Part shown: in pieces, positions 14,942 through 39,300 of the stretch | Position numbering within the stretch: the first letter of the stretch is position 1 | Layout: each line of letters opens with the position of its first letter | Source: an uncultured bacterium | GTDB taxonomy: Bacteria > Omnitrophota > Gorgyraeia > Ghiorseimicrobiales > Ghiorseimicrobiaceae | NCBI GenBank assembly: GCA_913009335.1 | Contig: CAJVXN010000001.1 | Location: 71,709-135,708, forward strand | DNA: 64,000 bases | Reading direction: 5' to 3' | Made by a program: the position numbers and the translations under genes | Notes under the pieces: generated by a model | Told to the model about the DNA's origin: nothing | Seen by the model: the letters and a program-made list of their open reading frames with translations, nothing else | The model's database searches: none

Positions 14942-14944
14942 TTT

Positions 14945-16426: not shown

Positions 16427-16545
16427 AAGCTAAAAACCCCCAAGAAAATCGCCTTCGGCTGATAACCTTATACGATTTTCAGTGGTATAGGAAAGTGCTT
16501 TACCTGTGCCCGTAAGGGTATACTTTCCTAGTACCATAAAAATTA

Positions 16546-18187: not shown

Positions 18188-18237
18188 TGAATTGCCGCGT
18201 AAATACTTTAGTTATTATCTCTAACGGGGTAAAACCC
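18103..18237. repeat. Inverted repeat pair bracketing start codon/leader of pseudopilin gene 17552..18187 (arms gtaaaccccgttagagata / tatctctaacggggtaaaaccc) plus internal hairpin gtcccgcctttggcgggac
   Basis: Arm 1 is at 18103-18121, inside the coding sequence for LSLTGF. Arm 2 is at 18216-18237 in the 5' UTR. In the mRNA, 5'-ccccgttagagat...AUG...atctctaacgggg-3' can pair. The same module recurs at the next two pseudopilin genes. Confidence 0.6.
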
Positions 18238-18292
18238 GATAAAAGCCTCTTACGATATTTTCTATAAACCGGCATCGGTAATTTCTCTCTTA

Positions 18293-18751
18293 TTATATAT
18301 TTGTCGCGTCATATATCGCGTAGGCGTTACGCGAAACTTTTACCTGCCGCTTACCTTCCTGCCAGGTAATTTCCAGATTTATCTCATACATACTATACAT
18401 ATCTTCATCATCTACTAGATTAAAGGATAAATCCCAATTGAATGTTCTATTGCGATCTTCAAACTTACCGTTCCTTAATATATTCGCGCCTGGCCCTAAA
18501 TGCTCTAAATCATCCTGAGTCTGCCAAATTTTCTCATCTGCCCAGCTAGCGAGATTCAAATAGTTAACGTAATAATTGTGTAAATCCAGTGATGACAAAA
18601 ATGTTTCGTGTATTAATACGACCCCCAACAATAAAACCATCGCTGCGATCATTACCTCGAAAAGCGTAAACCCCGTTAGAGATAGTCCCGCCTTAGCGGG
18701 ACGTCTATTGACGATAAAATCTTTTAATAACCGTCTAAATCTCTTAAACAT
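18293..18751 (-). CDS. Prepilin-type minor pseudopilin (GspI/H-like) with long K/R-rich leader
   Basis: RRPAKAGLSLTG|FTLFEVMIAAMVLL. 152 aa. Confidence 0.7.
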   Translation of the reverse strand: MFKRFRRLLKDFIVNRRPAKAGLSLTGFTLFEVMIAAMVLLLGVVLIHETFLSSLDLHNYYVNYLNLASWADEKIWQTQDDLEHLGPGANILRNGKFEDRNRTFNWDLSFNLVDDEDMYSMYEINLEITWQEGKRQVKVSRNAYAIYDATNI

Positions 18752-18845
18752 TGAATTGCCGCGTAAATACTTCGGTCGTTATCTCTAATCCAGAAGGATA
18801 GACCTTACCTGTTCCTTTGAAGGAAGGGTCTAACGGGGTAAATCC
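18666..18845. repeat. Inverted repeat pair at pseudopilin gene 18293..18751; UTR arm split by a 41-nt insertion; hairpin gtcccgccttagcgggac with compensatory loop change
   Basis: Coding arm at 18666-18685. UTR arm ttatctctaa (18779-18788) is separated by an insertion from tctaacggggtaaatcc (18829-18845). The 50 nt at 18741-18790 are near-identical to 18181-18230. Confidence 0.6.
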
Positions 18846-18858
18846 TCCGGCCGTTTTT

Positions 18859-19371
18859 TTATTCCCAATTCGTAATATCATCTGTGCCTTCTGCGCCATC
18901 TTTCCCTAATGAATAAAGATCATAATCAGTCCTATGTTCCCCCGGAGATTTATATTTATATTCTCTACCCCAGGCATCTATAGGTCTTTTCTCTAAATAT
19001 GGACCGTTCCAGTTGATAGCCGAGCTAGATTTACTAAGCAATGCCGCCAGGCCCTCCGATGTCGAGGGAAAATTACCATTATCTAACTCATAAAGTTTTA
19101 ACGCTGTAGCAATGTTCGCCTGAATATCAGTCTTAACCGCGGCAATTCTTGCCTGCTCACTCCTTCCGGTAAGCCTTGGTAATACCATAGCTGCCAATGC
19201 CCCGATAATCACAACCACAAGCATAAGCTCAATAAGAGTAAACCCCGTTAGAGATAAGGTACCGAAGGTGTCTGTCGGTCGTCTTCGACGACCTATCTCT
19301 AACGGGGTAAACCCTATTATCCGCGTGATTTTCTTTACCGATCTTCTAAAATTAATCATTGCCCCCTCCAT
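18859..19371 (-). CDS. gspG: Type II secretion major pseudopilin GspG
   Basis: LSLTG|FTLIELMLVVVIIGALAAMVLPRL, and the GspG-typical C-terminus NGPYL...DAWGREYKYKSPGEHRTDYDLYSLGKDG. The ORF encodes a 45-aa leader that contains a second, degenerate GFTPLEI motif. Confidence 0.85.
   Translation of the reverse strand: MEGAMINFRRSVKKITRIIGFTPLEIGRRRRPTDTFGTLSLTGFTLIELMLVVVIIGALAAMVLPRLTGRSEQARIAAVKTDIQANIATALKLYELDNGNFPSTSEGLAALLSKSSSAINWNGPYLEKRPIDAWGREYKYKSPGEHRTDYDLYSLGKDGAEGTDDITNWE
19238..19314. repeat. Inverted repeat pair inside the annotated 5' end of gspG (15-bp perfect arms) with internal hairpin ggtcgtcgaagacgacc
   Basis: gtaaaccccgttagagata (19238-19256) and tatctctaacggggtaaaccc (19294-19314). 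Both arms lie in frame within the 45-aa leader, encoding IIGFTPLEI and LSLTGFTL. Confidence 0.6.
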
Positions 19372-19385
19372 ATTCTGATAATTAT

Positions 19386-20330
19386 TTATTCTCTCTCTAT
19401 CCCCGCCTCTTGCAACTCACTCTCTAAGTATTCCCGCCATCTATCTTCTAAATCTCTCAAATTTCGTATATAAGACGGATAAGCAAATCTGAATGCTTCT
19501 TCCAGTGATTTCCCGTCGCGTAGTTGACGGCAAAAATGAATGAATCTATCTGTTCCGTATCTCTGAATTAAAAATTCCACCACAGAAACAGACTGCAGAT
19601 AATACGTACTGACTAGTGTATTGGCATCTAAAAATAAAACTCCATCCGCCCCCTTCCTCGTGCGTATAGCGCGAATATAAACCCGCTCTATATCTTTAAG
19701 GCGCCTGACATCCAACGTCATTAAATCATCTATGGAAAGCAGCTTATCCTCCGAGTAAAACTGCATGGCCAGCTTTCTCATTTTAACTCTCTTTACCTCT
19801 TCTGACCACTGCGCGACACCTTCATCCAGCCATAAAGGTATCTCCCCTTTAAAGCCTACGAAATCACGAAATATCAAATGTGCTACTTCATGAGGAAGAA
19901 CAGATTCAATAAATTCCTTACTGAAAACATGGCTTGCAATAAACTTATCCGTATAACTAGCCATACCCTCGGACCACTCGGGTTGCCCGGTTGCCTTTAG
20001 AAAAGAACCCTGATCCGGATACATATAAATTTTCACCCTATTATCCCACAACCAAAACTCTGAATATCTGGGATACCCTAAATTTTTAGCAATCGTCAAA
20101 TAATACTTTTCCGATTTATTCAGTATTTCTTTCGCGAATTTTCCATCACCAGCATGATAAACAATAAAATGCTCGCTGCCTGATTGCTGCCAATCAATAG
20201 CAAGCAATATTTTAAAGGACAAAAAACAAAAAGTCAAAATTAAAAAAATGACCTTCGGAAAATTGATTTTTTTCATCCTTCTGTCGGATTTTAACCCAAA
20301 TTCCGGGTCTAATTTTCCATATCCTAACAT
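19386..20330 (-). CDS. Secreted/membrane-anchored MA-clan zinc metallopeptidase (Peptidase_MA_2-like, HEXXH...E)
   Basis: HEVAHLIF and the downstream WLDEGVAQW are gluzincin motifs. A signal-like segment follows an internal Met (MKKINFPKVIFLILTFCFLSF), so the true start is probably about 20276. The gene sits between gspF and gspG with 3-nt and 14-nt gaps. Confidence 0.6.
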   Translation of the reverse strand: MLGYGKLDPEFGLKSDRRMKKINFPKVIFLILTFCFLSFKILLAIDWQQSGSEHFIVYHAGDGKFAKEILNKSEKYYLTIAKNLGYPRYSEFWLWDNRVKIYMYPDQGSFLKATGQPEWSEGMASYTDKFIASHVFSKEFIESVLPHEVAHLIFRDFVGFKGEIPLWLDEGVAQWSEEVKRVKMRKLAMQFYSEDKLLSIDDLMTLDVRRLKDIERVYIRAIRTRKGADGVLFLDANTLVSTYYLQSVSVVEFLIQRYGTDRFIHFCRQLRDGKSLEEAFRFAYPSYIRNLRDLEDRWREYLESELQEAGIERE

Positions 20331-20333
20331 TTT

Positions 20334-21551
20334 TTATCTCGCCATTACATTAATCTCAAACACCGGAAGCAGCATCGCTACTACAATAAAACCCACAATA
20401 AGGCCGATTACCAAAATCATTAGCGGCTCTAACAAAGAAAACATCACCCGCATCTGCTCTTCAGTGTCGCGTTCATAGCTCGTGGCCACCTCTGCTAAGG
20501 ACTCCTGCAATCTACCTGATTCCTCCCCTACTATGATAAGATTACTCATAAAAGCCGGAATTAATTTTGAACTTTTAAGGCTCCTGCCGAATGAACCCCC
20601 ATGCTCTAATTCTTTACAACTCTTATCTATTACGCCTTTTAAAACCTCATTATCCAATACGGGTATAGACACATGAATCGCACTTAACGCATCAATGCCG
20701 CTCTTTAAGAGAAGCTCTAAGGTACGGCTAAAACGGGCAAGCTCTGCCTTAAGAATAAACTTTCCGAATACGGGAAAATGCAATTGAATCAAACTCATAT
20801 GCGCCTTTCCGGATTTTGTTTTAACAAAACGCGCTACTGTTAAAACAAAGGCCGTTAAAATTATAACTATCCAAAACCACCATCGCCGTAAACCCTCGCT
20901 TATCGCAATCAGCAGCTGCGTAGGTAAAGGTAAATTTTGCCCCATACTAGAGAATATTCCTGTAAGGCGAGGCATCACAAAAACAAGCATAAATATTACG
21001 GTTGCCACTCCTACTATACCCATAAGCACAGGATAAACCAAAGCCATCCGAAAACGGGAAAGCACCTCTTCTTGTTTCGTGCGATAATCCGCGACCCGCA
21101 ATAAAGACGCATCAAGCGAACCAGTATCTTCTCCGGTACGAACAATAGCAATATAAAGATTAGAAAAAACCCGGGGATATTTATTAAGTGCCGCGGAAAA
21201 CTCAAGTCCCTCTTTTATGGAATTATGTATATCAACTATAATACTTTTAAAATTACTGCTTTCTATCTGCTCAGAAATTATGTCCAAGGCATCCAGAATA
21301 GGCACGCCGGATTTTAGAAGACTTGCTAACTGCCGGCTAAAAATAGCAACATCCTTAAATTTCACTTTACCCGAACGCGTCCTTTTAGAGGATACCGCAC
21401 CCTGACCGGAATCGGTAAATTCCTTTACGCGGATAGGAAGGTAACCCATCTGGTGAATCTTTTCAATCGCATCATGCTCTGATTGAGCCTCAAGTTCTCC
21501 TTCTTTTATATCTTCCGGCCCTTTTTTCGCGCGATATTTATATATTGGCAT
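20334..21551 (-). CDS. gspF: Type II secretion / type IV pilus inner-membrane platform protein GspF/PilC
   Basis: 405 aa. Two GspF repeats, each with TM segments (VLMGIVGVATVIFMLVFVMP; EPLMILVIGLIVGFIVVAMLLP). N-terminus is typical of GspF. Confidence 0.85.
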   Translation of the reverse strand: MPIYKYRAKKGPEDIKEGELEAQSEHDAIEKIHQMGYLPIRVKEFTDSGQGAVSSKRTRSGKVKFKDVAIFSRQLASLLKSGVPILDALDIISEQIESSNFKSIIVDIHNSIKEGLEFSAALNKYPRVFSNLYIAIVRTGEDTGSLDASLLRVADYRTKQEEVLSRFRMALVYPVLMGIVGVATVIFMLVFVMPRLTGIFSSMGQNLPLPTQLLIAISEGLRRWWFWIVIILTAFVLTVARFVKTKSGKAHMSLIQLHFPVFGKFILKAELARFSRTLELLLKSGIDALSAIHVSIPVLDNEVLKGVIDKSCKELEHGGSFGRSLKSSKLIPAFMSNLIIVGEESGRLQESLAEVATSYERDTEEQMRVMFSLLEPLMILVIGLIVGFIVVAMLLPVFEINVMAR

Positions 21552-21601: not shown

Positions 21602-23821
21602 TTAACCGCTTTTACATATTTTATTGATTCTATTTCTCTCGCTACTAGTCAAATCTAAAAAACAGGCCGCGATTTCATACCTCTCGCCAAGAGTGTTTTC
21701 AGTAGCTCTGACTATTCTGGCCAAACACTCTATGGGCGCCTTGCGATCAAGTAGTTCAATCTTTAATTCCAAAAAGGAGCCTAAGGCATACGGCTCATCC
21801 GCAATGAATAAAACTCCCCCCGCGCTTATATCCTTCGTAACGCTAAAGTGTTCGGGGGCATCATCACGTTTAGATACCTCTAGTTTTGTGCGAAAAACCC
21901 TGTAGCTTATGTTTATCGTAGAATCCAAGCGAGAAAAAACCCTCTTATCTAAAAAACTTAAATCCGGTTTTCGCTGCTCTAGCGCATCGAGGTTATTTTC
22001 TCCTTTTTTTCCGTCTATTTCTATTTTTTCCGCTTCAGACGGATAATCTTGTTCAAATTGTAATGTATTAACGGCTGCCTGCCGGTTATCCGATGTTAAT
22101 AAAGAAGTATCGGACGGGGTCAATCGCATAACCTCTTCAGGGGTGGTGACTCCTGAAATCACCTTGGCCCAACCGTCATGACGCAAAGTACGCATACCTC
22201 TTTGTATAGCGAGATTTTTTATTTGATTTGTAGAAACACGTTTAATAACCAGATCCTTTATCGAATCATCAATCAATAAAATCTCATATACGGATGTCCG
22301 GCCAAAAAAACCGCTAAAATTGCACGTTTCGCATCCTTTACCGCGAAAAATCTTTACTTTACTTTCAGACTTTAATCCAAGCTCTTGAGCAATCTGCTTT
22401 TTAAGTTCAACTGCCGCGTCCTTATCCTCATATTTACAATGCGGACAAATAACGCGCAATAGACGCTGCGCGATAAAGGCTTCTACACTGGAGGCAACTA
22501 AATAAGGTTCCAGCCCTATATCAAGAAGCCTCGCGATACCGCTAGCCGCGTCATTAGTATGCAGAGTCGAGAAAACAAGATGGCCGGTTAAGGCAACGCG
22601 TATGGCAATTTCCGCGGTTTCTAAATCTCTTACTTCTCCAATCATCATTATATCAGGATCGTGCCTTAGAACACTACGCAGGCCCCGCGCAAAATCCAAA
22701 CCAATCTCCGGCATAACCTGTATCTGCGTTACCCCTGTCATCTCGCACTCAATGGGATCTTCTATGGTAATAATTTTACGATCCTTGGTATTGATCTTGC
22801 TTAAGCAGGCATATAAAGTCGTAGTCTTACCTGATCCTGTGGGACCGGTAACAAAAATAATGCCGTGAGGTTCTTGAATTAGTTTTTCGAAAACATCCAG
22901 ATCTATTTTCTGTAAACCCAGCTTTTCCAGGCTATGCAGCATCTGGGTGGGAAGTATTCTTATTACGACACTTTCGCCGAAAGGCGTAGGCATAGTAGAG
23001 ATTCTCAGATCAAGTACTTTATCCTGAATTCTAACCGAAGTCCTGCCATCTTGCGGAAGACGCCGTTCAACAATATTTAACCTGCACATAACCTTAATAC
23101 GTGAAATAATCGCGCTCAAAAAACTAGCCAGCTCATCAGAGGCTTTTACATCAAGAAGTACGCCGTCTATGCGATAACGCAAAGCAACTCCTCCCCGATA
23201 CGGTTCAATATGAATATCGGTAGCGCGTTTCTTATAGGCATCTGAGATTATCTGATTAACAAGTTTTATTACCGAAGCTGCTCCCGCTACCTTTTCGATA
23301 TCCTCAATTTTTCCGCGACCTTTATGGGTAACTTCCGGCACTGCTTCAACGCCTTCAGACGTAATTTTATCAAGTATGGCAGCCGTTGAGCCATAATACT
23401 TCCTAAGCCCCTCCAAAATATCATACTGACGGCAAAGGACTATTTCAATATTATAACCAAGCTGCATACGTATCTCATCTTTTGTCTTTATATCCAACGG
23501 ATATGAGACTGCTATGGTCAAAATATTAGCCTTAATTGCAAGCGGCAAAAAACTATAATAAGAAGCGACTTTTATGGGAATTTTACTGATAACCGACTTA
23601 TCTATAGAAGCTGTTCTTAAATCCGTATATTTTAACTTTAATTTCTTCGCCAGTATTTCTAAGATATCCCGCTCAACAACTATTTGCTTTTTAATCAAAA
23701 CATTATTTAAGGTAAGCTCGGAAAACTCAACTTCCGTTACAACCGAATCCAATACTTCTTTCGAAGCCAATCCTGACTCAATTAATGCCTCGTATAAAAT
23801 TTTATCGTATTTATTAATCAT
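21602..23821 (-). CDS. gspE: GspE/PilB-family secretion ATPase with C-terminal PilZ (c-di-GMP-binding) domain
   Basis: 739 aa. N-terminal GSPII_E_N-like region. Walker A is GPTGSGKTTTLYA. Tetracysteine motif CPHCKYEDKD...CETCNFSG. GspE C-terminus GMRTLRHDGWAKVISGVTTPEEVMRL. An extra ~180 aa carry PilZ motifs RVFSR (RxxxR) and TKDISAGGVLF (DxSxGG). Confidence 0.85.
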   Translation of the reverse strand: MINKYDKILYEALIESGLASKEVLDSVVTEVEFSELTLNNVLIKKQIVVERDILEILAKKLKLKYTDLRTASIDKSVISKIPIKVASYYSFLPLAIKANILTIAVSYPLDIKTKDEIRMQLGYNIEIVLCRQYDILEGLRKYYGSTAAILDKITSEGVEAVPEVTHKGRGKIEDIEKVAGAASVIKLVNQIISDAYKKRATDIHIEPYRGGVALRYRIDGVLLDVKASDELASFLSAIISRIKVMCRLNIVERRLPQDGRTSVRIQDKVLDLRISTMPTPFGESVVIRILPTQMLHSLEKLGLQKIDLDVFEKLIQEPHGIIFVTGPTGSGKTTTLYACLSKINTKDRKIITIEDPIECEMTGVTQIQVMPEIGLDFARGLRSVLRHDPDIMMIGEVRDLETAEIAIRVALTGHLVFSTLHTNDAASGIARLLDIGLEPYLVASSVEAFIAQRLLRVICPHCKYEDKDAAVELKKQIAQELGLKSESKVKIFRGKGCETCNFSGFFGRTSVYEILLIDDSIKDLVIKRVSTNQIKNLAIQRGMRTLRHDGWAKVISGVTTPEEVMRLTPSDTSLLTSDNRQAAVNTLQFEQDYPSEAEKIEIDGKKGENNLDALEQRKPDLSFLDKRVFSRLDSTINISYRVFRTKLEVSKRDDAPEHFSVTKDISAGGVLFIADEPYALGSFLELKIELLDRKAPIECLARIVRATENTLGERYEIAACFLDLTSSERNRINKICKSG

Positions 23822-23824
23822 CTT

Positions 23825-26518
<2,694 letters not shown>

Positions 26519-26534: not shown

Positions 26535-28019
26535 TTACACCTTTTGCTTAAAATACTCTCTGAGATGTTCATTAAGTTTATTTTTTAAATCTTCGTTTAA
26601 TTCCTTTGTTTTTCTAAGCTCTGAGAAAAAATCCTTCTGGCGCGCTAAAATAAACTTAAAGATATCTTGCTTGAATTGTTTTATCTGTGAAACAGACAAG
26701 ACATCCAGCATGCCCTGGTTTAAAACATTCAGATAAACAATCTGCTCTTCCACGGCAATCGGTTTATTCTTATCCTGAATGATAAGCTGATTTATTGCCT
26801 CGCCTCTTTTCAGCCTAAGTTCCGCCTCTTGGGAAAGCCCTGTTGTTCGCAACTGCGTCATCTGCAAAAGTTCTTTATATTGAATGTAATCCAGCCTTAA
26901 TGTTTTACTTGCTTCCCGCATAGCCTTCCATTGCGCTTTATTGCCGATACGGGAAACCGAAAGCCCAAAATCAATAGCCGGCTTAAATCCCTTATTAAAA
27001 AGTGCTGTCGAAAAATATAACTGGCCGTCTGTCATAGAAATAATATTAGTCGATATATACCCGGTAACATCTCCCTGTAAAATCTCAACAATAGGAAAAA
27101 ATGTCATTGAACCACCACCTAATTCCGGCTTTAAGTATCCCGCGCGTTCCATTAACTGCGAATGAATATAAAATATATCTCCCGGATAAGCTTCTCTCCC
27201 GGGAGCACGCTCAAGCAGTAGTGATATTTGCCTGTATACCCAGGCATGTTTGGTCAGGTCATCAAAAACCACAAAAACATCCTTGCCCTTAGACATAAAA
27301 TATTCACCCAGCATACATGCCGTATATGGCGCTAAATACTGCTCCCCCGTAGACAAAGAAGCCACACCGCTTACTACTACCGTATAACTTAATGCGTCTT
27401 TTTCCATCAATGTTCGCACTACTTTCAAAAGACTGGAATAGGGTTTTCCAATACAACAATAAATACATATAACATCTTTACCTTTTTGATTCAAAATAGC
27501 ATCTATACCTACTGTAGTTTTTCCGGTAAGCCTATCTCCGATAATCAACTGACGCTGCCCTTTCGCGATAGGTATGATCGCGTCCAAAAGCAAAGCCCCC
27601 GTCTCAAACGTCTCCTTCAACGGAACACGCTCCATAACACCGGGTGCTACTTTAAATACGGGAAGAGTTTCATCCGCCCGAATGACTCCGAGATCGTCTT
27701 GCACCTCACAAAGTCCGTTTACTATGCGCCCGATAAAAGCATCCGACACCGGAAGATTTAAAGATCTTCCTTTATTGTATATCTCATCTCCGGCTCGAAT
27801 ACCGCCGGTATCACCCAAGACTAAAATCTGCACTTTATCTTCCGTAAAACCAAGCACCAAACCTAAAACACCGCTAGCAAACTCTACTATTTGCCCATTT
27901 ACGCAATATGGAAGGCCCGTGGCAATAATAACGAATTTACGCACAGACGCAACATGTCCGATCTCTTTAACATCAAACTTTCTATCGCTATTGCCTCTCT
28001 TTGGTTTGGTCTTATTCAT
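26535..28019 (-). CDS. atpA: F-type ATPase alpha subunit
   Basis: 494 aa. P-loop GDRLTGKTTVGIDAILNQ. Conserved alpha blocks ERAPGREAYPGDIFYIHSQLMERAG and ISMTDGQLYF. Overlaps the b/delta gene by 8 nt. Confidence 0.9.
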   Translation of the reverse strand: MNKTKPKRGNSDRKFDVKEIGHVASVRKFVIIATGLPYCVNGQIVEFASGVLGLVLGFTEDKVQILVLGDTGGIRAGDEIYNKGRSLNLPVSDAFIGRIVNGLCEVQDDLGVIRADETLPVFKVAPGVMERVPLKETFETGALLLDAIIPIAKGQRQLIIGDRLTGKTTVGIDAILNQKGKDVICIYCCIGKPYSSLLKVVRTLMEKDALSYTVVVSGVASLSTGEQYLAPYTACMLGEYFMSKGKDVFVVFDDLTKHAWVYRQISLLLERAPGREAYPGDIFYIHSQLMERAGYLKPELGGGSMTFFPIVEILQGDVTGYISTNIISMTDGQLYFSTALFNKGFKPAIDFGLSVSRIGNKAQWKAMREASKTLRLDYIQYKELLQMTQLRTTGLSQEAELRLKRGEAINQLIIQDKNKPIAVEEQIVYLNVLNQGMLDVLSVSQIKQFKQDIFKFILARQKDFFSELRKTKELNEDLKNKLNEHLREYFKQKV

Positions 28020-28752
28020 TAATCCTTGCTTTAGCCTGGATATCTTTCGCTTGCTGACGGATTTTATTACTCAAACTTCCATCTAGAACTAAATTTCCGA
28101 TAGTTACAATAATGCCGACGATAACCGAGGAATCTATCTCTTCTTTAAGACTTATGTCACGTTTTAACAATAGTTTTAATCTTTTAACTAAGCTTTTACG
28201 CACTTCCTGACTTAAAGGAAACGCGGAAATAACTTTTGCCTCTCGTATCCCATCGCCGACAGCCAAATCCTTAAGCTCATCAAATCCGTTTTTAATCAAA
28301 TCGTCTATCCAATATGATTGTGCCAATTTTTTAAAATCCAGCGGCAAGGAATCCCGCGTCAACTCACAGGCTTTTTTAATCGCTTCACCGGCTATTTTTT
28401 GCTCAATCTCCGCTATGAGACTCTTACGAGACTTATCTGCCTGCTGAATAAGATCATCACTTTGGATGTGCGCCTGATTTATTATTTTATCCCGCTCGCT
28501 TGTGATTTCCTTCCGGGCATCAAGCCTTATTTTTTCCGCCTCGCCGCGCGCCTGAGCTAAAATCTCACCCGATTTCTTTTCCGCGTCTTCCAACTTCTTG
28601 GCAGATTCGATTTCCTTGTTTTCGTAATCATGATTTAATTGATCAAGATGATCAGTGGCAGACGTGATATTTTTCGTCATTATCTTCCTGAATACATATA
28701 TAAGCACGCTAAAAACAAAAACTTGAATTATTATTAATGACGCGATTAACAT
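28012..28752 (-). CDS. F-type ATPase b subunit fused to C-terminal domain of delta (b/delta fusion)
   Basis: 246 aa. Single N-terminal TM (IASLIIIQVFVFSVLIYVF), then a long charged coiled coil as in b. The C-terminal ~90 aa match the delta/OSCP C-domain pattern (VISAFPLSQEVRKSL...VIVGIIVTIGNLVLDGSLSNKIRQ). Confidence 0.7.
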   Translation of the reverse strand: MLIASLIIIQVFVFSVLIYVFRKIMTKNITSATDHLDQLNHDYENKEIESAKKLEDAEKKSGEILAQARGEAEKIRLDARKEITSERDKIINQAHIQSDDLIQQADKSRKSLIAEIEQKIAGEAIKKACELTRDSLPLDFKKLAQSYWIDDLIKNGFDELKDLAVGDGIREAKVISAFPLSQEVRKSLVKRLKLLLKRDISLKEEIDSSVIVGIIVTIGNLVLDGSLSNKIRQQAKDIQAKARINE

Positions 28753-28855: not shown

Positions 28856-28876
28856 TGTTGAGGCCAAGCCTCAACA
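28856..28876 (-). terminator. Stem-loop immediately 3' of the c-subunit stop (possible partial terminator/attenuator between c and b/delta genes)
   Basis: tgttgagg-ccaag-cctcaaca forms an 8-bp stem with a 5-nt loop, 4 nt after the TAA. A short U-run (acaacuuuuugu) lies 12 nt further on the transcript. It sits within a 127-nt spacer that is unusually long for this operon. Confidence 0.25.
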
Positions 28877-28879: not shown

Positions 28880-29098
28880 TTATTGCGCGGAAAATAGCTG
28901 AAAAACAATTAACATTGCCGCAAACGCCACCATCTGGGTCAATACCAACGCTATAATCATAGCTGTAAAAATTTTAGGAGCTGCCGAGGGATTACGGCCT
29001 AATGCCCTAATACTGGCAAAACTAGTAGCGGCAAACACCGCGCACGGCCCTAAAATGCATATTCCAAAAATTACAATAAGTGCTACATTACGACTCAT
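28880..29098 (-). CDS. F-type ATPase c-subunit (proteolipid) homolog lacking the conserved ion-binding carboxylate (Gln55)
   Basis: 72-aa two-helix hairpin with the loop RNP (E. coli R41-Q42-P43). A gapless alignment puts Gln55 (codon CAG at 28934-28936) at the E. coli Asp61 position. The helix-1 glycine motif is degenerate (ILGPCAVFAATSFAS). Confidence 0.7.
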   Translation of the reverse strand: MSRNVALIVIFGICILGPCAVFAATSFASIRALGRNPSAAPKIFTAMIIALVLTQMVAFAAMLIVFQLFSAQ

Positions 29099-29137: not shown

Positions 29138-29371
29138 TCAAGCTTCCTCAATTATTACTGTTACCTTATTTTGATCAACTCTTATGATCCCTCTACGTAT
29201 CAAAAGTCCTTCTCCGTCAATAAGTAATTTCCCGGAAATAAGACGGCTTAAAATACGCTTATGAAACGGCCCCACCTCAAATACCCCCTGTTCTCCGGGC
29301 ACAACGATACTTTTTACTTTACCTTTAAATACAATATTTTGAGGATTAAAAATAGAGACGTCTAGAAACAT
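29138..29371 (-). CDS. atpC: F-type ATPase epsilon subunit, N-terminal beta-sandwich domain only
   Basis: 77 aa, LDVSIFNPQNIVFKGKVKSIVVPGEQGVFEVGPFHKRILSRLISGKLLID.GEGLLIRRGIIRVDQNKVTVIIEEA. This follows the epsilon N-domain consensus (L.V.S...F.G.V..V..PG..G..G....H.P.L..L..G...I........GG.LEV....VTVLA..A). There is no C-terminal helical hairpin. Confidence 0.6.
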   Translation of the reverse strand: MFLDVSIFNPQNIVFKGKVKSIVVPGEQGVFEVGPFHKRILSRLISGKLLIDGEGLLIRRGIIRVDQNKVTVIIEEA

Positions 29372-29378: not shown

Positions 29379-30212
29379 TCAGCCCTCTTGCTTGTCGGAT
29401 TTAGGTTCTTTTTCTGTTTGCTTTTCCCCAAAAGCGGATTCTTTAGCATGCAAAAGTGAGTCTTTGGTAATTTGCGCCTGACGATGCCAAGTAAAAAAAA
29501 GTACCGCTGAAAGCAATCCGCTAAAAACAATTATACTAAAAATTACTATCCAGGTCATAGTTTTTGAAGGAGCATCTGCCTTTATCTTGCTATCTGCCAG
29601 CATTTCAGGAGCGGGTGGGCCCCCGGCAGTAACTAAAATCTTTTCCATTCTAAGAACATCTTTCTCTATCTCTTCCAAGGTAATTAAGCTCGCACGATAA
29701 GCACCGATATGCCGCTGGCGGCTAAGTGATTCATCGGACTGTTGCGTTCTGATTTCATTTAAACGCGGATAAATCGTATCGGCTAAATCTTTAGCCTTTT
29801 GATAATACTCTGAATCTTCCAACTTCCTAAGAATAGAATCCACGCGGTCGGAAAAAATAGAAAGCTTATCTTCTGAAACAATCCAAATATCCCTTACCTC
29901 TATTTCAAAAGTACTTATCTCTTTAGGGATAAGTTCAACTTGCTTTTTATAAACATAGTAAAGGGATTTATTGGTATCATATTCCAACTCAAGGCCCCCC
30001 AAATCTATAATATCTTTAGGAGTTACTTCTTGAGGTAAATACTTTTTAATCTCTGTGGTTTGCGTTTTTGTCGCGGAAGGATTAAGCACGATAACCTTAA
30101 AAGTAACGCTCTCGGCTGCTATTGTTTGCCTAAGGCCGACAAAACCAGACATCAAAAGGAAAAAAGAAAATACACAAACGGATTTTTTAATAAATGTTTT
30201 ATTTTTTTTCAT
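29379..30212 (-). CDS. Hypothetical bitopic membrane protein (N-terminal signal/TM, periplasmic domain, C-terminal TM + charged tail)
   Basis: 277 aa. N-terminal hydrophobic VCVFSFFLLMSGFVG and C-terminal TM TWIVIFSIIVFSGLLSAVLFFTW. Lies between the giant gene and the epsilon-like gene, 7 nt upstream of the latter. Confidence 0.45.
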   Translation of the reverse strand: MKKNKTFIKKSVCVFSFFLLMSGFVGLRQTIAAESVTFKVIVLNPSATKTQTTEIKKYLPQEVTPKDIIDLGGLELEYDTNKSLYYVYKKQVELIPKEISTFEIEVRDIWIVSEDKLSIFSDRVDSILRKLEDSEYYQKAKDLADTIYPRLNEIRTQQSDESLSRQRHIGAYRASLITLEEIEKDVLRMEKILVTAGGPPAPEMLADSKIKADAPSKTMTWIVIFSIIVFSGLLSAVLFFTWHRQAQITKDSLLHAKESAFGEKQTEKEPKSDKQEG

Positions 30213-30300: not shown

Positions 30301-33300
30301 TCATTCGAAAATTACGACCGGATCTTCCAATCCTCCCATCTTGGTTTCCATTATTTGGCCCATAACATCAACACTGCTATTTATTGAATCCGCTTTTTCA
30401 CGTATTCTTCGCAGCGTAGGTGATTCTTCGATTGCTTCTTCCAATATCGTACTTAGATCATATCCTTCATCTCCGGCTAGGGTCCTCATCCTGTCAGAAA
30501 TATCGTTGATTGCCCGGGTTATAGTCGCGGAAGGTCCCTCCTTAGCCATAGCATCGGGAAGCGAATCTACGGATGCTTTAAGATTCTTTAAGGTAAGCGC
30601 GATATTAATGCTTTCGCCGCTGATTAAAACCGACTCAATTGCTTTTATCGCCTCTAACGCCTTTTTAGCTGCTGCTGCCGCCCGAGGAGCGGAAGCAGCA
30701 AGGCCGGCAACAGTAGTAATACTCATTGACTCTACCATTCCCGCGCCGGTAAGCAGGGTACTGCTCTCCTCCTCGATAATATTATAAGTGTAGGCTTTAC
30801 CGCCTGTAAACCTTGAATCTGCTTTCAATGAATATTCATAGAATCCCGCTCTGGTGCTACTCTCAACCATAACCAGGGAATCTTCAATAATATTCCCTTC
30901 CCAGTCGTAAATCGTAAGCAGCGGTACCACTTTAGGCAAGCCCATGCACTGTATGATTATAGTATCCCCGAGCAATACCGGATCAGGAAACGCGGCAGTA
31001 GTCCATTCATATTTCGCGACTAATCCTGAACCATAAACTAAACCGCCGGTAACCGACTCGGTAATAACGAAGGAGTAAGACTTACCCGCTTCGAAAGCAT
31101 CATCAGCCTTAAATTCATAAGTATAAATTCCCGGCTCACTCTCGGACATAACCACGTCACTAAAGACTGTCTTGCTATCGGCATCATAGATAGTAAGCGC
31201 AGGAGAATATCCCGGCTGTCCCTGGCAGGTTATGGTTATCGTATCATTAGTCAATGCCGGATCAGGAGAAGCTGATGCACCCCAAGAATACTTCAACGCT
31301 GTTTCTTCCAATAGGCCCGCTGCTTCTTCCGCGGTCACGGCACTATCTTCTAAAAGTATAAGCGAAGCGCTCACAGAAGTTTCAAAGCTTGTCATCGCGA
31401 CATCAATCATTGTTTCCATATTCCCCATCGAAGTCTGTATCATATCTGTCTGATCGGTCATCTTTTGGTCAATAACCGCGGTCTGCGCAGTTAATGTCGC
31501 CTGCAATTCGGTGCTGACCTCAGATATCGGCTTATCAAGGGCAGTATTAACAGTGGAAATCATGCTGTCAACCGTTGTCTCCATATCCGCCATCTTCATG
31601 GGTATAGTAACTGTAAATGATACAGGTGTTGTAAACGTCGCTCCGGTAGCTAACCCCATATAACTTGTTACGGCATATACTTTCCCTGATTGCAAGGTAA
31701 GATAACTATCCGCTCCGGCGGTATAAGGAGTCGGGGTCCAGGATTGTTGGAAGAAACCCGCGAAATCAGACGGGATATCCATCTCTCCTGTCTTATACGC
31801 CGCGCAATCATTTATCACATCATCCATAGTACGCACCTCTCCCGAACGGTCACCTACCCATAATTTCACGCCGGCATCAACATCATCATAATAGAGATGT
31901 TTGTTGTTAGCCTCGTCCACTAATGTTGTTTTCCTCTTGATTTTGTAAATGCTGTCATATATACTCACATCGATAATCAAAGCGCCGGAAACCAAAGCGC
32001 CGTCTCTTTCCAGCCAGGTTGTGATATCCAACTTATCAGGTGTCTCTACATAATCATCATCAGGATCTGCTGGAGTGCCATTGTCATTCCATACTTCCAC
32101 ATTATAAGCGAATTCTGAATAAGCGCGCCAGATATGCACGACCAACGTCTCCATGGTTCTGTATATCGTACGGTCTCCTCTCCAGATTTGCGCATCCTCA
32201 TCCCAACCCACCAGGTATGACTCGGTAATTGTCCCAAAATCCTGATGGGTCCATGTTGCCGACCAGAAACCAGCGGGAACTTCGTGCGATACCGGAGAAG
32301 CAAGGCCGGCAGCATCCCAACCGGATGTATCGCTTACCGTCAATCCGGAAATCGGCTGGTTAGTAACAAGATCCCGTATATCCCAGATAATCTTATAATA
32401 ATCTATCTTCATCGTATCCACACCGCCGGCTACTACCGGCCCCTCTACGTATACGGTATGGTCATTACTGTCATAGATGCGTATCTTAACCGTGGTGGAG
32501 CGGTCATCAGGTATCTTCCAATCGAATGTACCTGTGTTGGCGATACCGGTCGCATCCTGGTCAAGATCATCCTTCAGCGCAATCTCAGTAACAAAATCAT
32601 CCTTTGAATAAACAAGATCTACCGTATTAATCGTTCCGAATGTCGTCCAGGAAACTTCACGGACTTCATTTGTGACCCAGCGGGACTCATAAATTCCGCT
32701 GCTATTCAATGTTACTGCCGGAGCAATAAGGGTAAAAGCGCCCTGAATCTTAAATGTGCCGGACTCGCCAAAAACAGTCGCATCTCCCGGATCAGTAATT
32801 CTTATTTTACAATCAGGCGAGATAGTATCCGGTATAGTCCAGGCATACGTATATTCCGAACCCGACCCGCCTGAACCCGCGCCGTTTTGAACTATACCGT
32901 CATTGGCGATATCGTAACTTTCAACAATCGGATTAAACGGGCCTGTATCCCCATTTGTGGAATAGGTTATCTTGACTTCAGACATTGTTCCTCCCCATTC
33001 CCAGGCAATATCATAAACACTATCAACTGCCAACTCCGTAACGAGCTGACCGCTACCCTGCTCTTTAATGCCGTTTACTATAATATACCCAATGATATGG
33101 AAGGAATCACTCTGGGCAACAACGTCTGACTCGGTAGGCCTGGCATCAACTACTTTAATAATCGCATCGGCTGTTGCCTGATCAGGAACTGTCCAGGTAT
33201 AAGTATAGTTTGAACCTGCCCCGCCTGAGCCTGAGCCGTTAGCTACTATACCGTCATCAGCGATATTATAACTTTCAAGGATTAGATTAAACGGACCGCC

Positions 33301-36300
33301 GGTACCATTTATAGAATAAGTTATCTCAACCTCGGGAATAGTGCCTACCCATCCCCATTCTATGTCATAATCCTGTTCTATATCCCAAGAATCATCTAAA
33401 ACAGGCGCGTTAATCCAGAGATTTCCTTTAATTCTTAAATCATTGGATATACTATAGGCATCATCATCGGTTGAACTCTTAACGCGTACCTTTACTATCT
33501 GAGAAATATCATCGGGTATAGTCCAATCATAGGTCCCGCCAGCTGCGCCATTTGCCCAGCCTAATTGTATATCCTTAGGTGTTGTAAAATCATCCAGTGA
33601 ATAATGCAGGTCTACATTACTTACCGTACCGACCGTATCCCAGGCAATCTGGAATGTATCGCCGACAACTAACTCTTCACCCCCGGTAGGGGCGGTTAAG
33701 GTAAATTTCGCACGTATCTTAGCCATACCGGCAGATTCACCATACGCATCAGCATCGTTTGCGGCAGCTACCTTGACTTTCAACTGAGCTGTAATCTCAT
33801 CAGGAACAGACAGCCAAGTCCAAGATAAATCACTTGCTGAAACAGACGTAAGAGCATTCCAGGTTCCGGCTATACCGCCGACAGTAGAATAGTAGATACC
33901 CACATCAACAACTGTTCCCGTATAAGTCCAGCTAATCGTTGCCGGATCATTTACATACCATTTAGAACTAGCATCAGGTGATGAAACGGTAAATCCCGGC
34001 ATAATCTTAAATGTGCTGTCTGAAATATCAAATGCATCCGTATCATTAGGATCCTCAACACGCATAATTAAATCACTATGGATGAAATCCGGTATAGTCC
34101 AGGCGTATGTTCCGCCAACAGGAGCAGCCGTAGCAATAGTATATTTAATCGCCGGCTGAGTCTGCTTATAACAGTAAATCTTCACTCCTTGGGTATCACC
34201 CAATTCCGACCAGGAAATTGTATACGGATCATCAACAGTTATCTTTTGTCCGCCGTTAGGTGCGGTTAAAATCAAAGTAGCTCGCACGCGGAAATCACCG
34301 TCGGATATATCGTATACGTCGCTATCAGACGGATGCGCAACACGAATTCTCACATTTCCTGAAACAGCCTCAGGAGGTATATTTAACCAATCGAATGCCT
34401 CGTCACTAGCAGTTGAAGTCGTAATCGGTATAGGATTAGTAAACGTTGGGTCATTAACAGAATAATCGATTTTCACGGAACCAAAGGAAGCTGGGCCGTA
34501 TTTTGCCCAATTAATAGTTCCGGAACTTCCGGAATACCACACTTCGGCTCCATTAGGATTCTGAATAACAATCCTACTCATTATCTTGAAAGGATTCGCT
34601 GATATATCATAAACATTCGCCAGATCGGCAGTCGAGCGTACTCGAATCAATGCCTGATCCGTAGCAATGGAAGGTATGTTCCATTCATACTCACCGATAT
34701 TGGTAATTCCCTGAGCCGCGGCAATAGCAACCCAGATTGAACCATTGTAATAATGAATATCGACGTTGGTAATATTTCCGTCCCAATCCCAGTCTATATA
34801 TTTATTATCGGCACAACCCCATTTTTCACCGCCGTTAGGTATATTAAGCGTAATCCTACCCTGAATTTTAAAGTCGTTATCAGACATATCAAAAGAATCT
34901 GTGTCATCGTTGTAATCAGAAACACGGACTCTGCAAGTTGCCGAAATTGTCGGCGGAATTGTCCAATCGTAATTTCCGTCATTTATCTCATCGGTTACAA
35001 TCGGAGTCCAAGTATCATAAGGAGCGACTGTTGCGTATTTAAGATTAACTGAACTTGCCAAGCCTTGAGACGTCCAGGTAATCGTCTCTACATCGCTGAC
35101 TACCCACTGCTCAGTACCATTTGGCACTGTAACATTAAAATTCTCCATTATCTTAAACGCAAGATCAGAAAAATCTTCTACCAAACTATCCTGCGTATCG
35201 CGGATACGTATAAAACAATTATTCGATAATGTGCTCATAGGCACTGACCAGGCGTACTCTAAGAGTGACGCTTGTTGGTTAGTAGCAAAAGTAGTGTAAG
35301 TTCCACCCGAACCATTTGTTGAAAGCGCAATATCTACCCCGGAAAGCGGGCCGATCATCGTCCATTTAACCTTAGATGATTCGTCACTCTGCCCAACTTT
35401 CAACTTATCCTGACCGTTAGGTTGAGCTACGGTTAATGCGCCGTGAATATTAAAATTATCGGATGTAGTTGTAGCATCAGGGTCGGCTGTATCTGTAACC
35501 CTTACCAATGCCTGCTGAGATATAACATTAGGAATAGTCCAGTTATAATTCTCCGTAGCATTAGATATCGCTGAACCGTCATTTACATAACCCCACACTC
35601 CGCCATTATTAAGCGAATATTCCACATAGACACTACTAATAGCACCAAGGGTATTCCATGATATCATGTTCGTACTATTCGCAAGCCATCTATCAGTGCT
35701 TACAGGATGTACAAACGTAAATCCGCCGCGCATGCTAAACTCATTTGATTCATCGTATACATTCGCATCCGCTAAATTGATTATTTTAATAACAGTCTGA
35801 ATACTGGTATCTAAAGGTATGGTCCAGGTTTGAGTATAATCTCCCGGGCCTACAGCTACAGAACCGGCAATAGGCGCATACGGATAAGTTACCCCAGCAT
35901 CAGTTGAATATTCTATGCTGACATTTGCGATGGAACCGTGAATTGTATAAGCGATATCATGCTGAGTTTCGCATAACCAAATATCATTTAACGCAGGGCT
36001 TGTAATAGTAATAGATCCTTGAATTTCAAAATTTGCCGGTGATTCATCAGGCTGCGTACTTGAAGAGGCGTTTGCGTCTTCAATACGTACTCGCAGTTTA
36101 TCGCCGATTACATCCGGAACCGGCCAACTATAACTTCCATCAACTGCCGGACGAGTAGCAATCGTATTAGGATAACCATTCAAACCCTCGTTGGTATCAT
36201 ATTTTAATACGACATTAACAATATCACCGAATTTTTCCCAGGTAATCGGTTCACTGTTATCTACTATCCATACCTCTGTTCCCATCGGCGATAACAAATT

Positions 36301-39300
36301 AATATCCGCGGCTATCTTAAATACATTGGAGGTATGGGTTACGGTATTATCTAAATTATCCGTAATCTTTACCGTGACATTATCCCCTATTGTATTAGGT
36401 ATTGTCCATTGGTAAATCTGATTAGACGCATTTACACTTGCCGTAATCGGATTAAGCCCTGATCCATAATCATATTCTAATCTCACAGTGGCAATAGAAC
36501 CGGTAGTTATCCAGGTAATATCTTTTTGCTGGGCAACATCCCAAACCACTCCGCTAGCAGGATTAGTAATCTGTAATTTACCTTTAATAGAGAATAACCC
36601 TGAAACACCTACTATAGTCGGTTCGGTAATGTCGGTATTACTTACTCTTACCTTTACCTGGTTGTCGATATCGTCGGGAATAATCCAGTCATAGGTTAAA
36701 CCGCTTAAATTATCGGCATCCTGAACCGGTTGATAGGCAGCGCCGCCTACGGAGTATTCTAATTTTACCGTGGGAATCGTCCCTGTCTTTGTCCAGGATA
36801 TTGTCTCCTGATCCTGCACATACCAGACCTCACTTCCTACCGGTGCGCTAAGAGTTAATTGACCCGTAATCGTAAAGTCGTTATCAGACTCATCATAGAC
36901 CGTGGAATCGTCCTTATTGGTAATTTTTACTTTTACCAGCGAAGAAGCATCGTTAGGGATTGTCCAATCAAAGCTCCCGCCTCCGCCGCCGGTATCCGCG
37001 GTTAAATTATCCGCACCCGGAATCTGAACGTATGCCTGTCCGTCTACGGAGTATTCTAATTTCACCGTAGCAACCGAACCTGTAACCGTCCAGGTTATAG
37101 GTTCGCTTGCTCCGATAAGCCATGATTCTGCGCCGCTGTTAGGCGAGGTAACCTGCAGGTCACCGCGGATCTTGAAGTTGCTCGCGGACATATTAGACGC
37201 ATCGGAGTCATTAACATCCGAAACTCTCACTCTTACTAAATCTGATATAGCGTCGGGTATTGTCCATGATTTAGAACCCGTATTTACAATGGAAGCTGAA
37301 ATAACATCCCCATTAGGAATCACCCAGTTATTTCCGCCATCGGTTGAATATTCTAATTTAACATTTGTTACATCTCCGCTGGTTGTCCAGATAATGTCAT
37401 GGCTTGAACCAACAGCCCAGACAACGCCGCCGTCAGGAGAAATAATATCAAATATCGCCTGTACTTTAAAAGCTAAAGAATCGTCATAAACCTGGATATC
37501 GCTATCATCAGTAACCCTTACGACCACATTCGGTGAAACTGCATTATCAGCAATACTCATCCACCAGTAAAACAGATTATCTGTGGCTGTTGAGCTTACA
37601 ATCTGATCATTAAAGTCCGTTCCGCCGTTTAACGAATATTCTATTCTTACGTTAGCAAAATCACCGACCTTTGTCCATTCTACCTTAAAATCACTGCCAA
37701 CCGGTAGTTGCTCGCCGCCGCTTGGTTCAGTAACCGTTATATCACCCACGATAGAAAATGCGGGCGAGGTGCCATAAACATTAGTCTCATCATTTAAATC
37801 AGCTACTCTAATCAAATAAGTATCGCTTACGTGATTAGGTATATTGTTCCAAGTATAAGACTCATCACTCCCCGTAACGGATGCCGCGATAACATTATCA
37901 AATGCTCCCGCGTCTACAGAATAAGTAATTTTAACATCTTGAATACTACCCGTAAGATTCCAGGTTATATTATGGCCGCTCGATTGAGCAATCCATCTCT
38001 CTGTTCCGTCGGGAGCTATTACCTGTATTTTACCTTTTATAGAAAACACACCATCTGACTCGTCATTAACTGTGGCGTCATTAGTATCGGATACTCGAAT
38101 CAAACAAAGTTCGCTTATGGCATCGGCAACAGACGGCCAGGTATATTCACCCGCTCCGGGACCGGCAAAAGCATCAGCTATTATCTCTGTCCATGCCCCT
38201 CCATTATTCTTAGAGTATTCAATTCTTACTGTAGTTACCGAACCTGTTGCCTGCCATCTAATCTTTTTATTTGTATCTGCCACATACCAGGTATCTCCGC
38301 CATTAGGTTCGTTTAAAGTAAGGCTGCCTTTAATTACGAAAGGCACCGAAGAAACATCAACAACATCGCTATCATTTACATCAGATATCCTGACTTTAAG
38401 GCTCCCTCCTATTTCATCAGGAATAGTCCAATCATATGTTCCTTGTACGCCTGAAGCAGAGTTAGAATAAGAAGCCGCTTCAACAGTAATCTCTAACTCA
38501 TCAGCAAATCCATTAGTAGAATATTCAATCTTAACATAGCTAAATGTACCCGTTGGCGTCCATTTAATCTGTTGCGGATCACCAACATACCATGTCGGCG
38601 CGTCGATATCCGGAGAATCCAGCTGAATTTTTCCTTCTATCTCAAAAGCATCAGAATTATCTGTAACCTCTGTGTTATCAACATCTGTAATCTTTATTAC
38701 TGCTGCCTTACTATTAGTGGTTATATCACCTATGCCGGGAAACCACAACGTATACGGGCTAGAATCAAAAGCGACTGTAGCCACAATTGTCCATGGCGCG
38801 GATCCAATTTTCGAAAATTCTATATCTACATTACCCATATCTGCCAAACCTAAAGTCGTCCATTCTATATTAAAAGCATCAAGGACTTTTAAAATATTAT
38901 TAGTATCCGGTTTCGTAACGGTAATACCACTCTTCATCATAAAATCGGCAGACTCATCATAGGCAACCGCTAATGTAGAATCAGATACTTTAATCTTTGC
39001 CTGATCTGCGGTTAAAATATCCAGATTAGTAGGAATTGTCCAATCGTAAGGAGTTGATGCCGCAGGCAAAGAAGGTTCTACAACAAAGGCTCCGGGATAA
39101 CTCAATCCTCCATCCTTAGAGTACTCAATCTTAACGGTATCTACAACACCTGTAATGTTCCAGGATATGATATTACCTGAAGTACCTATAACCCATTTAT
39201 CACTAGAAACAGGAGAAGTAACGCTGATTACCGCGCGCACTTCAAAACTATTTGATGTATCTATTGCGCTGGCATTATCAGGATCTGTAATCCGGAATTG

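Follow-up and report, generated by a model that had tools for sequence, protein, structure and literature searches.

A c-subunit proteolipid with glutamine at the ion-binding position in an Omnitrophota F-type ATPase cluster without subunit a

The open reading frame at 28880..29098 (minus strand) of the window, which is the whole 64,000-nucleotide stretch of DNA that was analysed, is, as far as sequence, homology and predicted fold allow this to be said, the gene of a genuine F-type c subunit that is maintained by selection. Its product carries Gln55 at the position of the ion-binding carboxylate of helix 2, and it is encoded in a cluster that contains no subunit a. Position 55 is variable in the family, purifying selection acts on the rest of the protein, and the catalytic residues of F1 are invariant; the canonical ion-coupled mechanism has therefore very probably been lost, and our confidence in this loss is high but not complete. 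The primary event was probably the loss of subunit a and not the appearance of Gln, which would be a tolerated consequence.

The ATPase operon and its c subunit

The c gene is part of an operon with the order epsilon(N-domain)-c-b/delta-alpha-gamma-beta. The following features were assigned.

29138..29371, minus strand: epsilon, N-terminal beta-sandwich domain only, 77 aa (Pfam ATP-synt_DE_N 1.7e-12, whole protein covered)
28880..29098, minus strand: c-subunit-like proteolipid, 72 aa, two-helix hairpin, zero acidic residues
28934..28936, minus strand: CAG codon of Gln55 at the ion-binding Asp/Glu position (MAFFT and family profile alignments)
28012..28752, minus strand: b-delta fusion, 246 aa (Pfam ATP-synt_B 7-128, OSCP 166-236)
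26535..28019, minus strand: F1 alpha, 494 aa (Pfam; best PDB matches)
25673..26518, minus strand: F1 gamma, 281 aa (Pfam ATP-synt 6.4e-32)
24277..25725, minus strand: F1 beta, 482 aa from a TTG start (Pfam)

Judged by its residues, the F1 part looks catalytically competent. The best PDB matches of alpha were canonical bacterial alpha subunits (E ~1e-134), and its P-loop and Arg finger R357 were invariant among 57 orthologues, as were K184 (the P-loop Lys), E210 (the catalytic Glu), the neighbouring R211 and D271 (the Walker-B Asp) of beta. The gene callers placed the start of beta at the ATG at 25683, which results in a protein of 468 aa. The C-terminal inhibitory helices are absent from epsilon. 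This gene was located directly upstream of c in 78 of 80 related species-level loci, which are mostly labelled Omnitrophota, and the other two loci end at a contig edge. In the b-delta fusion, a single membrane helix at the N-terminus is followed by a b-type helix, and of delta/OSCP only the C-terminal half is present. Its OSCP match covers positions 99-170 of the 172 profile positions, and a full-length delta/OSCP with the alpha-binding N-domain is not present. As the missing N-domain of delta normally holds F1, it is not clear what geometry the stator has.

The absence of subunit a, which had been reported in the first-pass annotation, was borne out by the related loci. ATP-synt_A gave no match in the scanned ORFs of the window, and no a-like or polytopic unassigned ORF was present between beta and the giant gene described below in any of the 80 syntenic loci (10-kb flanks). 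In most of these loci there is no space for an extra gene between the giant ORF and beta. A hidden subunit a was also sought in the intergenic gaps and unassigned ORFs of the 80 loci, without any candidate being obtained. Subunit a is absent from the cluster; with a 64-kb window and 10-kb flanks, a copy elsewhere in the genome is not excluded.

The translation of 28880..29098 (minus strand) is MSRNVALIVIFGICILGPCAVFAATSFASIRALGRNPSAAPKIFTAMIIALVLTQMVAFAAMLIVFQLFSAQ. Three independent alignments agreed in placing Gln55 at the position of Asp61 of E. coli, as had originally been proposed from a gapless alignment of helix 2. With MAFFT, Q55 was found under Asp61/Glu65/Glu56 of the c subunits of E. 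coli, Ilyobacter tartaricus and Bacillus PS3, respectively. The Pfam ATP-synt_C HMM aligned residues 9-66 of the ORF with positions 5-58 of its 60 positions. A family profile built from 34 members matched the c subunit of Chloroflexus aurantiacus in the PDB (9itj_H, E=1.9e-6), with family position 55 on the conserved Glu of the Chloroflexus sequence 'FTEALAI'. The AF2 model was a helical hairpin with helices 3-35 and 37-70 (pLDDT 91.5), and the top 50 Foldseek matches in the PDB were all F-type c subunits (probability ~1, TM 0.65-0.8).

The polar loop R-(Q/N)-P of F-type c subunits is present as R35-N36-P37 and was invariant in 81 sequences, and the essential Asp or Glu of helix 2 is missing. 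The whole protein, helix 2 included, contains neither Asp nor Glu. Together with the agreement of the HMM and profile alignments, this excludes an alternative acidic residue in the membrane core, which would have overturned the assignment. Helix 1 was correctly described as degenerate in its GxGxGxG packing motif: its sequence is GPCAVFA, compared with GPGVGQG (I. tartaricus) or GPGVGIG in Na+- or H+-dependent rings. Three of the four ring-packing glycines are replaced, and AxAxAxA is not present either. F22 occupies the position of the Na+ ligand Gln32 of I. tartaricus in the MAFFT alignment. A terminator-like hairpin 3' of c was considered as a conserved element raising the stoichiometry of c; it occurs in the window as well as in some of the loci, without being conserved, and the idea was rejected.

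Variation and constraint in the c family

There is practically no room left for the view that Gln55 resulted from a sequencing or assembly error, or that the c gene is a decaying remnant. Such a suspicion could be based on the score of the window protein with Pfam PF00137 (ATP-synt_C), which at 19.1 bits is below the gathering score of 24, and on the fact that two gene callers skipped the ORF at 28880..29098. A precomputed PF00137 match exists for most orthologues. The 219-nt gene, however, recurs without a single change in three further public assemblies of this locus, one from ENA (a marine metagenome), one from NCBI (GCA_011051015.1) and one from Logan, and the CAG codon is therefore not due to a base-calling error at 28934-28936, a possibility that had been raised at the outset. 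The ENA copy has the same CAG and represents a different strain, because 22 of the 5936 operon positions are not the same as in the window. While the codon itself was given correctly at first pass, its description as one transition away from GAG was mistaken, since a change from GAG to CAG is a G-to-C transversion.

The c family comprises 527 homologous clusters in a large protein collection, nearly all named ones being labelled Omnitrophica/Omnitrophota, and it is present in 330 GTDB species genomes. Pairwise dN/dS of c was about 0.11, with dS saturated, and the median amino-acid identity of c (0.69) was similar to that of alpha and beta together (0.68). From these two observations it follows that c is under purifying selection, which also argues against a decaying gene. 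Eight residues of c had an entropy of 0 in the 81 sequences (V21, I30, G34, R35, N36, P37, S38 and Q67), and invariant motifs are likewise not expected of a remnant.

Alignment with related genomes demonstrated that Gln is not unique to this assembly. In the window and the 80 GTDB-species loci, position 55 was Gln in 42 sequences, Glu in 32, Val in three, and Gly, Phe, Ala and Ser in one each. The Gln of 41 of the 80 related loci was encoded by both possible codons, and the count at this site was 32 CAG, 9 CAA, 16 GAG, 16 GAA and 7 others. Among the best 120 of the 527 clusters, Gln occurred 62 times, Glu 55 times, Met twice and Gly once. The entropy of the site was 1.51 bits (81 sequences), which is among the five highest values in helix 2. 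In canonical c subunits the helix-2 carboxylate is among the most conserved residues. The simplest reading of the variability at c55 is that the carboxylate would no longer be used in this family.

A neighbour-joining tree was calculated from concatenated alpha and beta sequences of 57 taxa. Glu was found at position 55 on the basal branches, and at least 12 state changes at this position were required by parsimony; on such a tree, Glu looks to be the ancestral state and to have been replaced at least that often. Glu has been kept in about 40% of the species, and some of these rings could still be able to bind an ion. Distant c-like proteins with the loop 'GRNPSAAPKI' have E, Q, S, A or F at the same site. 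Some of them are fused double hairpins, and in all four of the four distant relatives inspected the epsilon gene was directly upstream. One of the 80 loci (L043) contains two tandem c genes, both with Gln. The earlier conclusion that this c-ring is not an ion-driven rotor was supported by the lack of anything like subunit a between the giant gene and beta in the 80 loci, the variable site 55, the invariance of R35, N36, P37, S38 and Q67, and the invariant catalytic residues of F1.

The surrounding locus

The ATPase genes are flanked on the same strand by the following features.

62486..63988, minus strand: secretin (Pfam Secretin 4e-50 and Secretin_N), with which this array of minus-strand genes begins upstream
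30301..55716, minus strand: giant secreted protein, 8471 aa, with an N-terminal signal peptide and Ig-like (Kre9_KNH-type) repeats
29379..30212, minus strand: p277, 277 aa, a conserved membrane-anchor module (AF2)
23825..24280, minus strand: stand-alone MshEN-domain protein, 151 aa (Pfam MshEN 3.3e-9)
21602..23821, minus strand: GspE/PilB-type secretion ATPase (Pfam T2SSE 2e-130) with N-terminal MshEN and C-terminal PilZ
14384..21551, minus strand: rest of the type II secretion/type IV pilus-like genes, namely GspF, MA-peptidase, GspG pseudopilin, an unknown 152-aa protein, GspJ, GspK, a PilM-PilN fusion and PilO/GspM (Pfam; order shared with related loci)

Beyond its signal peptide the giant protein has Ig-like repeats only, and the internal repeats of its gene are about 2.05 kb long. 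A homologous giant ORF was present upstream of the ATPase genes in most loci. p277 belongs to no Pfam family, and only hypothetical proteins of Omnitrophota were found as its relatives. The AF2 model of p277 (pLDDT 87.8) consists of a signal peptide, a beta-sandwich (35-107), a three-helix bundle (114-195) and a C-terminal helix (217-261), which comprises a membrane span and a short conserved cytoplasmic tail ('...FFTWHRQ...AKKSAFP'). The model had no significant fold match in the PDB.

A p277 homologue was found in 73 of the 80 loci, and wherever it was found it adjoined epsilon on the upstream side. In 22 loci it is a separate ORF, while in 41 it makes up the C-terminal ~240 residues of the giant protein. 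By this fusion the p277 module is connected with the giant protein, and by its invariant position next to epsilon it is connected with the ATPase. No correlation was found between the fused or separate state of p277 and the presence of E or Q at c55. p277 was also considered as a replacement for subunit a and was rejected. It has a single C-terminal membrane helix without conserved charge in the membrane, and the ectodomain is a beta-sandwich plus helical bundle; as stated, p277 has no significant fold match in the PDB.

In many loci the gene of the stand-alone protein with MshEN, a domain that binds cyclic di-GMP, is found between those of beta and GspE. The order giant gene, p277, epsilon, c, b-delta, alpha, gamma, beta, (MshEN), GspE, GspF, MA-type peptidase, GspG, unknown, GspJ, GspK was kept in nearly all of the 80 loci, as far as the contigs reach. 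The exception was L063, in which p277, epsilon and c are together and b-delta, alpha, gamma and beta are not adjacent. This arrangement is a hint that a role of c independent of F1 is possible. Polytopic unassigned ORFs occurred only downstream of the secretion genes; by inspection of their N-termini, without a profile scan, they appeared to be sensor-kinase- or permease-like. The link of the ATPase to p277, the giant protein and the secretion system rests on gene order and gene fusion, and there is no direct physical evidence for it.

Mechanism and relation to known systems

The reading that we favour, with moderate confidence, is that of an F1Fo-derived, ATP-hydrolysing motor in which a c oligomer serves as membrane rotor or anchor without ion translocation and is mechanically linked to p277, the giant protein and the secretion/pilus machine. 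With subunit a gone there would be no half-channels, and the mid-membrane carboxylate would then be dispensable. According to the chemistry of c-rings, a lipid-exposed Glu without subunit a should stay protonated and neutral, and Gln would be its uncharged look-alike. As Gln mimics protonated Glu, an interchange of Glu, Gln and occasional small or hydrophobic residues at c55 could be explained. The catalytic residues of F1 are kept and epsilon has no inhibitory helices, whose loss would remove the usual brake on hydrolysis; the enzyme would therefore most likely work in the direction of hydrolysis only. The c oligomer would be embedded in the membrane and translocate zero ions, and its mechanical output would probably act on the co-encoded partners, i.e., the p277 anchor, the giant Ig-repeat surface protein and the secretion/pilus-like apparatus. 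The formation of a c ring, its rotation, the restriction to hydrolysis and the identity of the mechanical load are all inferred, and the role of passive rotor or anchor suggested in the first-pass annotation is an inference as well. Ring assembly is unproven, given the replacement of three of the four packing glycines in helix 1 of the window c.

The chance that the complex is still an ion-coupled ATP synthase or pump appears rather slim. Subunit a would then be encoded elsewhere, rings with Glu would be normal, and Gln subunits would be mixed with Glu-bearing c or be inactive. The presence of Glu in 32 of 81 sequences, and its inferred ancestral state, are in line with this possibility. Mixed Gln/Glu rings are indeed known from Acetobacterium woodii c1 and V-type proteolipids, and the locus with two tandem c genes could provide such a mixture, but both paralogues of that locus carry Gln. 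A subunit a elsewhere would also have to be reconciled with the lack of any a-like gene in the 80 syntenic loci. The window c has not a single acidic residue, and the V, A, S, G, F and M found at site 55 in other members would not be tolerated by a working ion site. In addition, the operon is located inside a secretion/pilus locus and not in an energy-metabolism context. V/A-type ATPase subunits were reported for 70-99% of most Gorgyraeia (2026 preprint), so that a separate chemiosmotic enzyme would be on offer.

It is also unlikely, although it deserves to be kept in view, that the c hairpin does not form a ring at all. As a small membrane protein it could help to anchor or assemble either the b-delta stalk or the anchor formed by p277 and the giant protein. 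F1 would then be a fixed ATPase, e.g., an unfoldase or a motor for export, with FliI/FliH/FliJ of type III secretion as a parallel. The ~240-aa b-delta fusion resembles the b-plus-delta make-up proposed for FliH, and L063 keeps p277, epsilon and c without adjacent F1 genes, but the subunits that couple F1 to the ring, epsilon and gamma, are retained in the operon. The degenerate glycine motif of helix 1 (GPCAVFA) also speaks for a hairpin outside a ring; however, alkaliphile c-rings with AxAxAxA in place of GxGxGxG still form rings, and the predicted hairpin superposes on ring-forming c subunits with the TM values given above (0.65-0.8). Furthermore, the cytoplasmic loop GRNPS, which is the contact to gamma and epsilon in F-type enzymes, is invariant.

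For the preferred reading of a motor without ion translocation, a more specific form can be imagined, which is little more than a speculation and is itself unlikely. The a-less F1-c complex would be an ATP-driven, ion-independent rotary or winch motor with the giant surface fibre as its load. The C-terminal membrane helix and cytoplasmic tail of p277 would dock in or on the carboxylate-free c-ring, and rotation of F1 would turn, tension or reel the Ig-repeat fibre (~0.9 MDa by residue count) through the secretin. In V-ATPase c-rings the lumen is occupied by single-pass proteins, which is similar to the docking proposed for p277. If this were true, it would be a new bacterial surface motor for attachment to or attack on host cells.

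The cluster shares with the canonical F1Fo enzyme (operon atpIBEFHAGDC) homologues of alpha, beta, gamma, the N-domain of epsilon, c, b and the C-terminal half of delta, as well as intact catalytic residues and a c hairpin with an R-N-P loop. It differs by the absence of subunit a from the cluster, the dispensable carboxylate, an epsilon without C-terminal helices, the fusion of b to a truncated delta, a gene order starting with epsilon-c, and the location of the operon inside a giant-protein and secretion/pilus locus. Hairpins without a carboxylate occur in the rotor rings of A. woodii (c1 of the F/V-hybrid ring) and among eukaryotic and archaeal V/A-type proteolipids, and like the window c these have Gln or a similar residue instead of Glu at the helix-2 ion site. 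To our knowledge, such mixed rings always retain other carboxylate-bearing hairpins and work against subunit a, whereas the only c gene of the window cluster encodes no carboxylate and subunit a is missing. FliH/FliI/FliJ (YscL/N/O) are comparable as a rotary-ATPase relative that was recruited to a protein-export or surface-appendage machine, and it has been proposed that FliH unites a b-like with a delta-like part, which is also what the b-delta fusion does. FliI, however, is a homohexamer without a c-type membrane ring, while an alpha3beta3-type F1 with gamma, epsilon and c is encoded here.

The N-ATPase, which is an atypical and laterally spread F-type operon like the present one, retains subunit a, its c subunit has a complete Na+-binding site, and its genes are arranged differently. 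In the accessible part of its description (Dibrova et al. 2010, PMC2881411), it is presented as a membrane ATPase that translocates Na+. Subunit a, AtpQ/AtpR and the Na+-binding motif of c are all absent from the window cluster, which does not belong to this group. The Mycoplasma type 2/3 clusters comprise alpha-, beta-, gamma- and epsilon-like proteins and three unrelated proteins and lack b, delta and c (Beven et al. 2012, PMC3369863), and the extra proteins of the seven-gene cluster include ones with 3 and 12 membrane helices (PMC3369863). In M. mobile, an F1-derived ATPase works with very large surface proteins in movement on host cells (PMC8406192, PMC11864180). A non-chemiosmotic F1-derived ATPase and the pairing of an F1 motor with a giant surface protein are analogous to the system inferred here. 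Nevertheless, the window cluster is not a member of type 2/3, as b-delta and c are retained, the extra proteins are absent, and alpha and beta are far less diverged.

The ATPase gene cluster itself is already published. In its accessible part, the study of Seymour et al. 2023 (PMC10066038) describes an F-type ATPase of Omnitrophota, termed 'symbiotic' and non-respiratory, beside type-4a pilus genes, with both not more than 10 kb apart in 57 of 66 contigs. The window apparently contains the same cluster, with an F-type ATPase within 10 kb of pilus/secretion genes in Omnitrophota; only the 151-aa MshEN gene lies between beta and GspE, and the source names are Omnitrophica/Omnitrophota. Classification in that paper was based, as far as its accessible part goes, on an alpha-subunit tree in which alpha grouped with Mycoplasma type 2/3, whereas the best solved-structure matches of the window alpha were canonical alpha subunits. 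The main text of Seymour et al. 2023 (PMC10066038) contains no mention of subunit c, subunit a, c-ring or proteolipid, and no usable per-genome table of atpB/atpE is included in its supplementary tables. Nor does the accessible part deal with the variable carboxylate, with p277 or with the occurrence of this module as part of the giant protein. West-Roberts et al. 2023 reported type II secretion genes near giant genes, and ATP synthase or F-type ATPase is not mentioned in the text. Beyond Seymour et al. 2023, no description of a carboxylate-free c subunit or an a-less Fo in the Omnitrophota system was found in the searchable literature.

In relation to the searchable literature, the following points are new: a c that does not depend on the carboxylate, a subunit a that is consistently missing, shortened versions of epsilon and delta, and the p277 module together with its fusion to the giant protein. 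What defines rotary ATPases is that the c-ring carboxylate is coupled to subunit a. In a widespread lineage of hundreds of species, selection has kept c, gamma, epsilon and the stator stalk, while subunit a was dropped and the carboxylate is unconstrained. If c still forms a ring, this would be a natural F1-c rotor turning in the membrane without ion movement, and the rotor would be reusable as a purely mechanical part. The best clue to the purpose of the motor is its location in the giant-protein and secretion/pilus locus, a context that the first-pass annotation did not take into account. The fixed giant adhesin-like protein and the secretion/pilus association lead to the testable hypothesis that the motor powers attachment or attack by ultra-small predatory or parasitic Omnitrophota. 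As its mechanical role is inferred, it may be regarded as a possible second case, independent of Mycoplasma gliding, in which an F1 motor was recruited for mechanical work at the cell surface.

Residues and duplications of the c subunit

Two cysteines in helix 1 of the c subunit (28880-29098, minus strand) are each found in most of the 81 family sequences (the window and 80 related loci), with C14 present in 67 and C19 in 59 of them. Helix 2 has Phe66 in 78 of the 81 sequences and an invariant Gln67, both close to its outer end. Canonical c subunits do not have these features of the family, and the four residues might form a new interaction surface.

Tandem c paralogues were seen in one related locus, L043 (988-1498), where both copies carry Gln at the ion-binding Asp/Glu site. 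The more distant c-like proteins P0194 and P0199, 138-140 aa long, are fused double hairpins in which each hairpin carries Glu. These tandem and fused forms parallel the duplicated hairpins of V/A-type proteolipids.

The p277-epsilon-c segment

The following features lie close to c in the window or, in the last case, include c in a related locus:

28832-28876, after the c stop codon: 9-bp GC-rich palindromic hairpin and a second terminator-like hairpin
29379-30212, minus strand: p277 module, consisting of a beta-sandwich, a three-helix bundle and a C-terminal membrane helix
L063 3784-5208: p277-epsilon-c in a MAG labelled Ratteibacteria

The p277 module matched neither a Pfam family nor a PDB fold. 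It is encoded by its own gene in 22 of the 80 related loci (L001-L080), while in 41 it makes up the C-terminal part of the giant protein; wherever it was found in these loci or the window, epsilon lies directly downstream. In L063 p277, epsilon and c stay together with secretion/pilus genes on the flanks, and c carries Glu at the ion-binding site. There, c is followed by a response regulator and unrelated proteins, and none of b-delta, alpha, gamma and beta was present within 4.7 kb. The hairpins between c and b-delta are not a conserved feature; some of the related loci have strong hairpins at that spot.

Giant gene and other window genes

108-3945, plus strand: pyridine-nucleotide oxidoreductase and 891-aa molybdopterin oxidoreductase with Fe-S domains, at the start of the window
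6393-6713, plus strand: separate 106-aa ORF
21602-24280, minus strand: GspE/PilB-type ATPase and MshEN-only protein
30301-55716, minus strand: giant gene, containing the repeat region 39965-45983
56642-57910, minus strand: 422-aa protein with an IS200-like Y1 transposase domain

Three or more tandem-like units, each about 2.05 kb long and with 73-100% DNA identity, lie in the repeat region, and stretches of several hundred residues recur almost exactly in the giant protein. Such repeats are a hazard for short-read assembly, and their copy number may be variable. The transposase-domain protein is encoded just upstream of two small ORFs, after which comes the giant gene. Similar-looking ORFs, judged only by inspection of the N-terminal sequence, were present in other loci, for example L028 (12878-13240) and L078 (9471-10004), in the latter inserted between epsilon and c. 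The 891-aa protein looks like a formate-dehydrogenase-type enzyme; the only match of the 106-aa ORF was to the end of a molybdopterin-binding domain, and this ORF is possibly a gene fragment.

Putative second-messenger domains and annotation of c

The GspE/PilB-type ATPase has an MshEN domain at its N-terminus and a PilZ domain at its C-terminus, and a separate gene between beta and GspE encodes the 151-aa MshEN-only protein. As three putative cyclic-di-GMP-binding domains thus adjoin the two ATPases, second-messenger control of the whole machine is suggested.

In two of the three public assemblies of the window locus (L081 and L083), the c ORF was passed over by automatic gene callers, and the window c protein scores below the Pfam threshold. 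Surveys of ATP synthase completeness that rely on annotation therefore easily overlook this c subunit.
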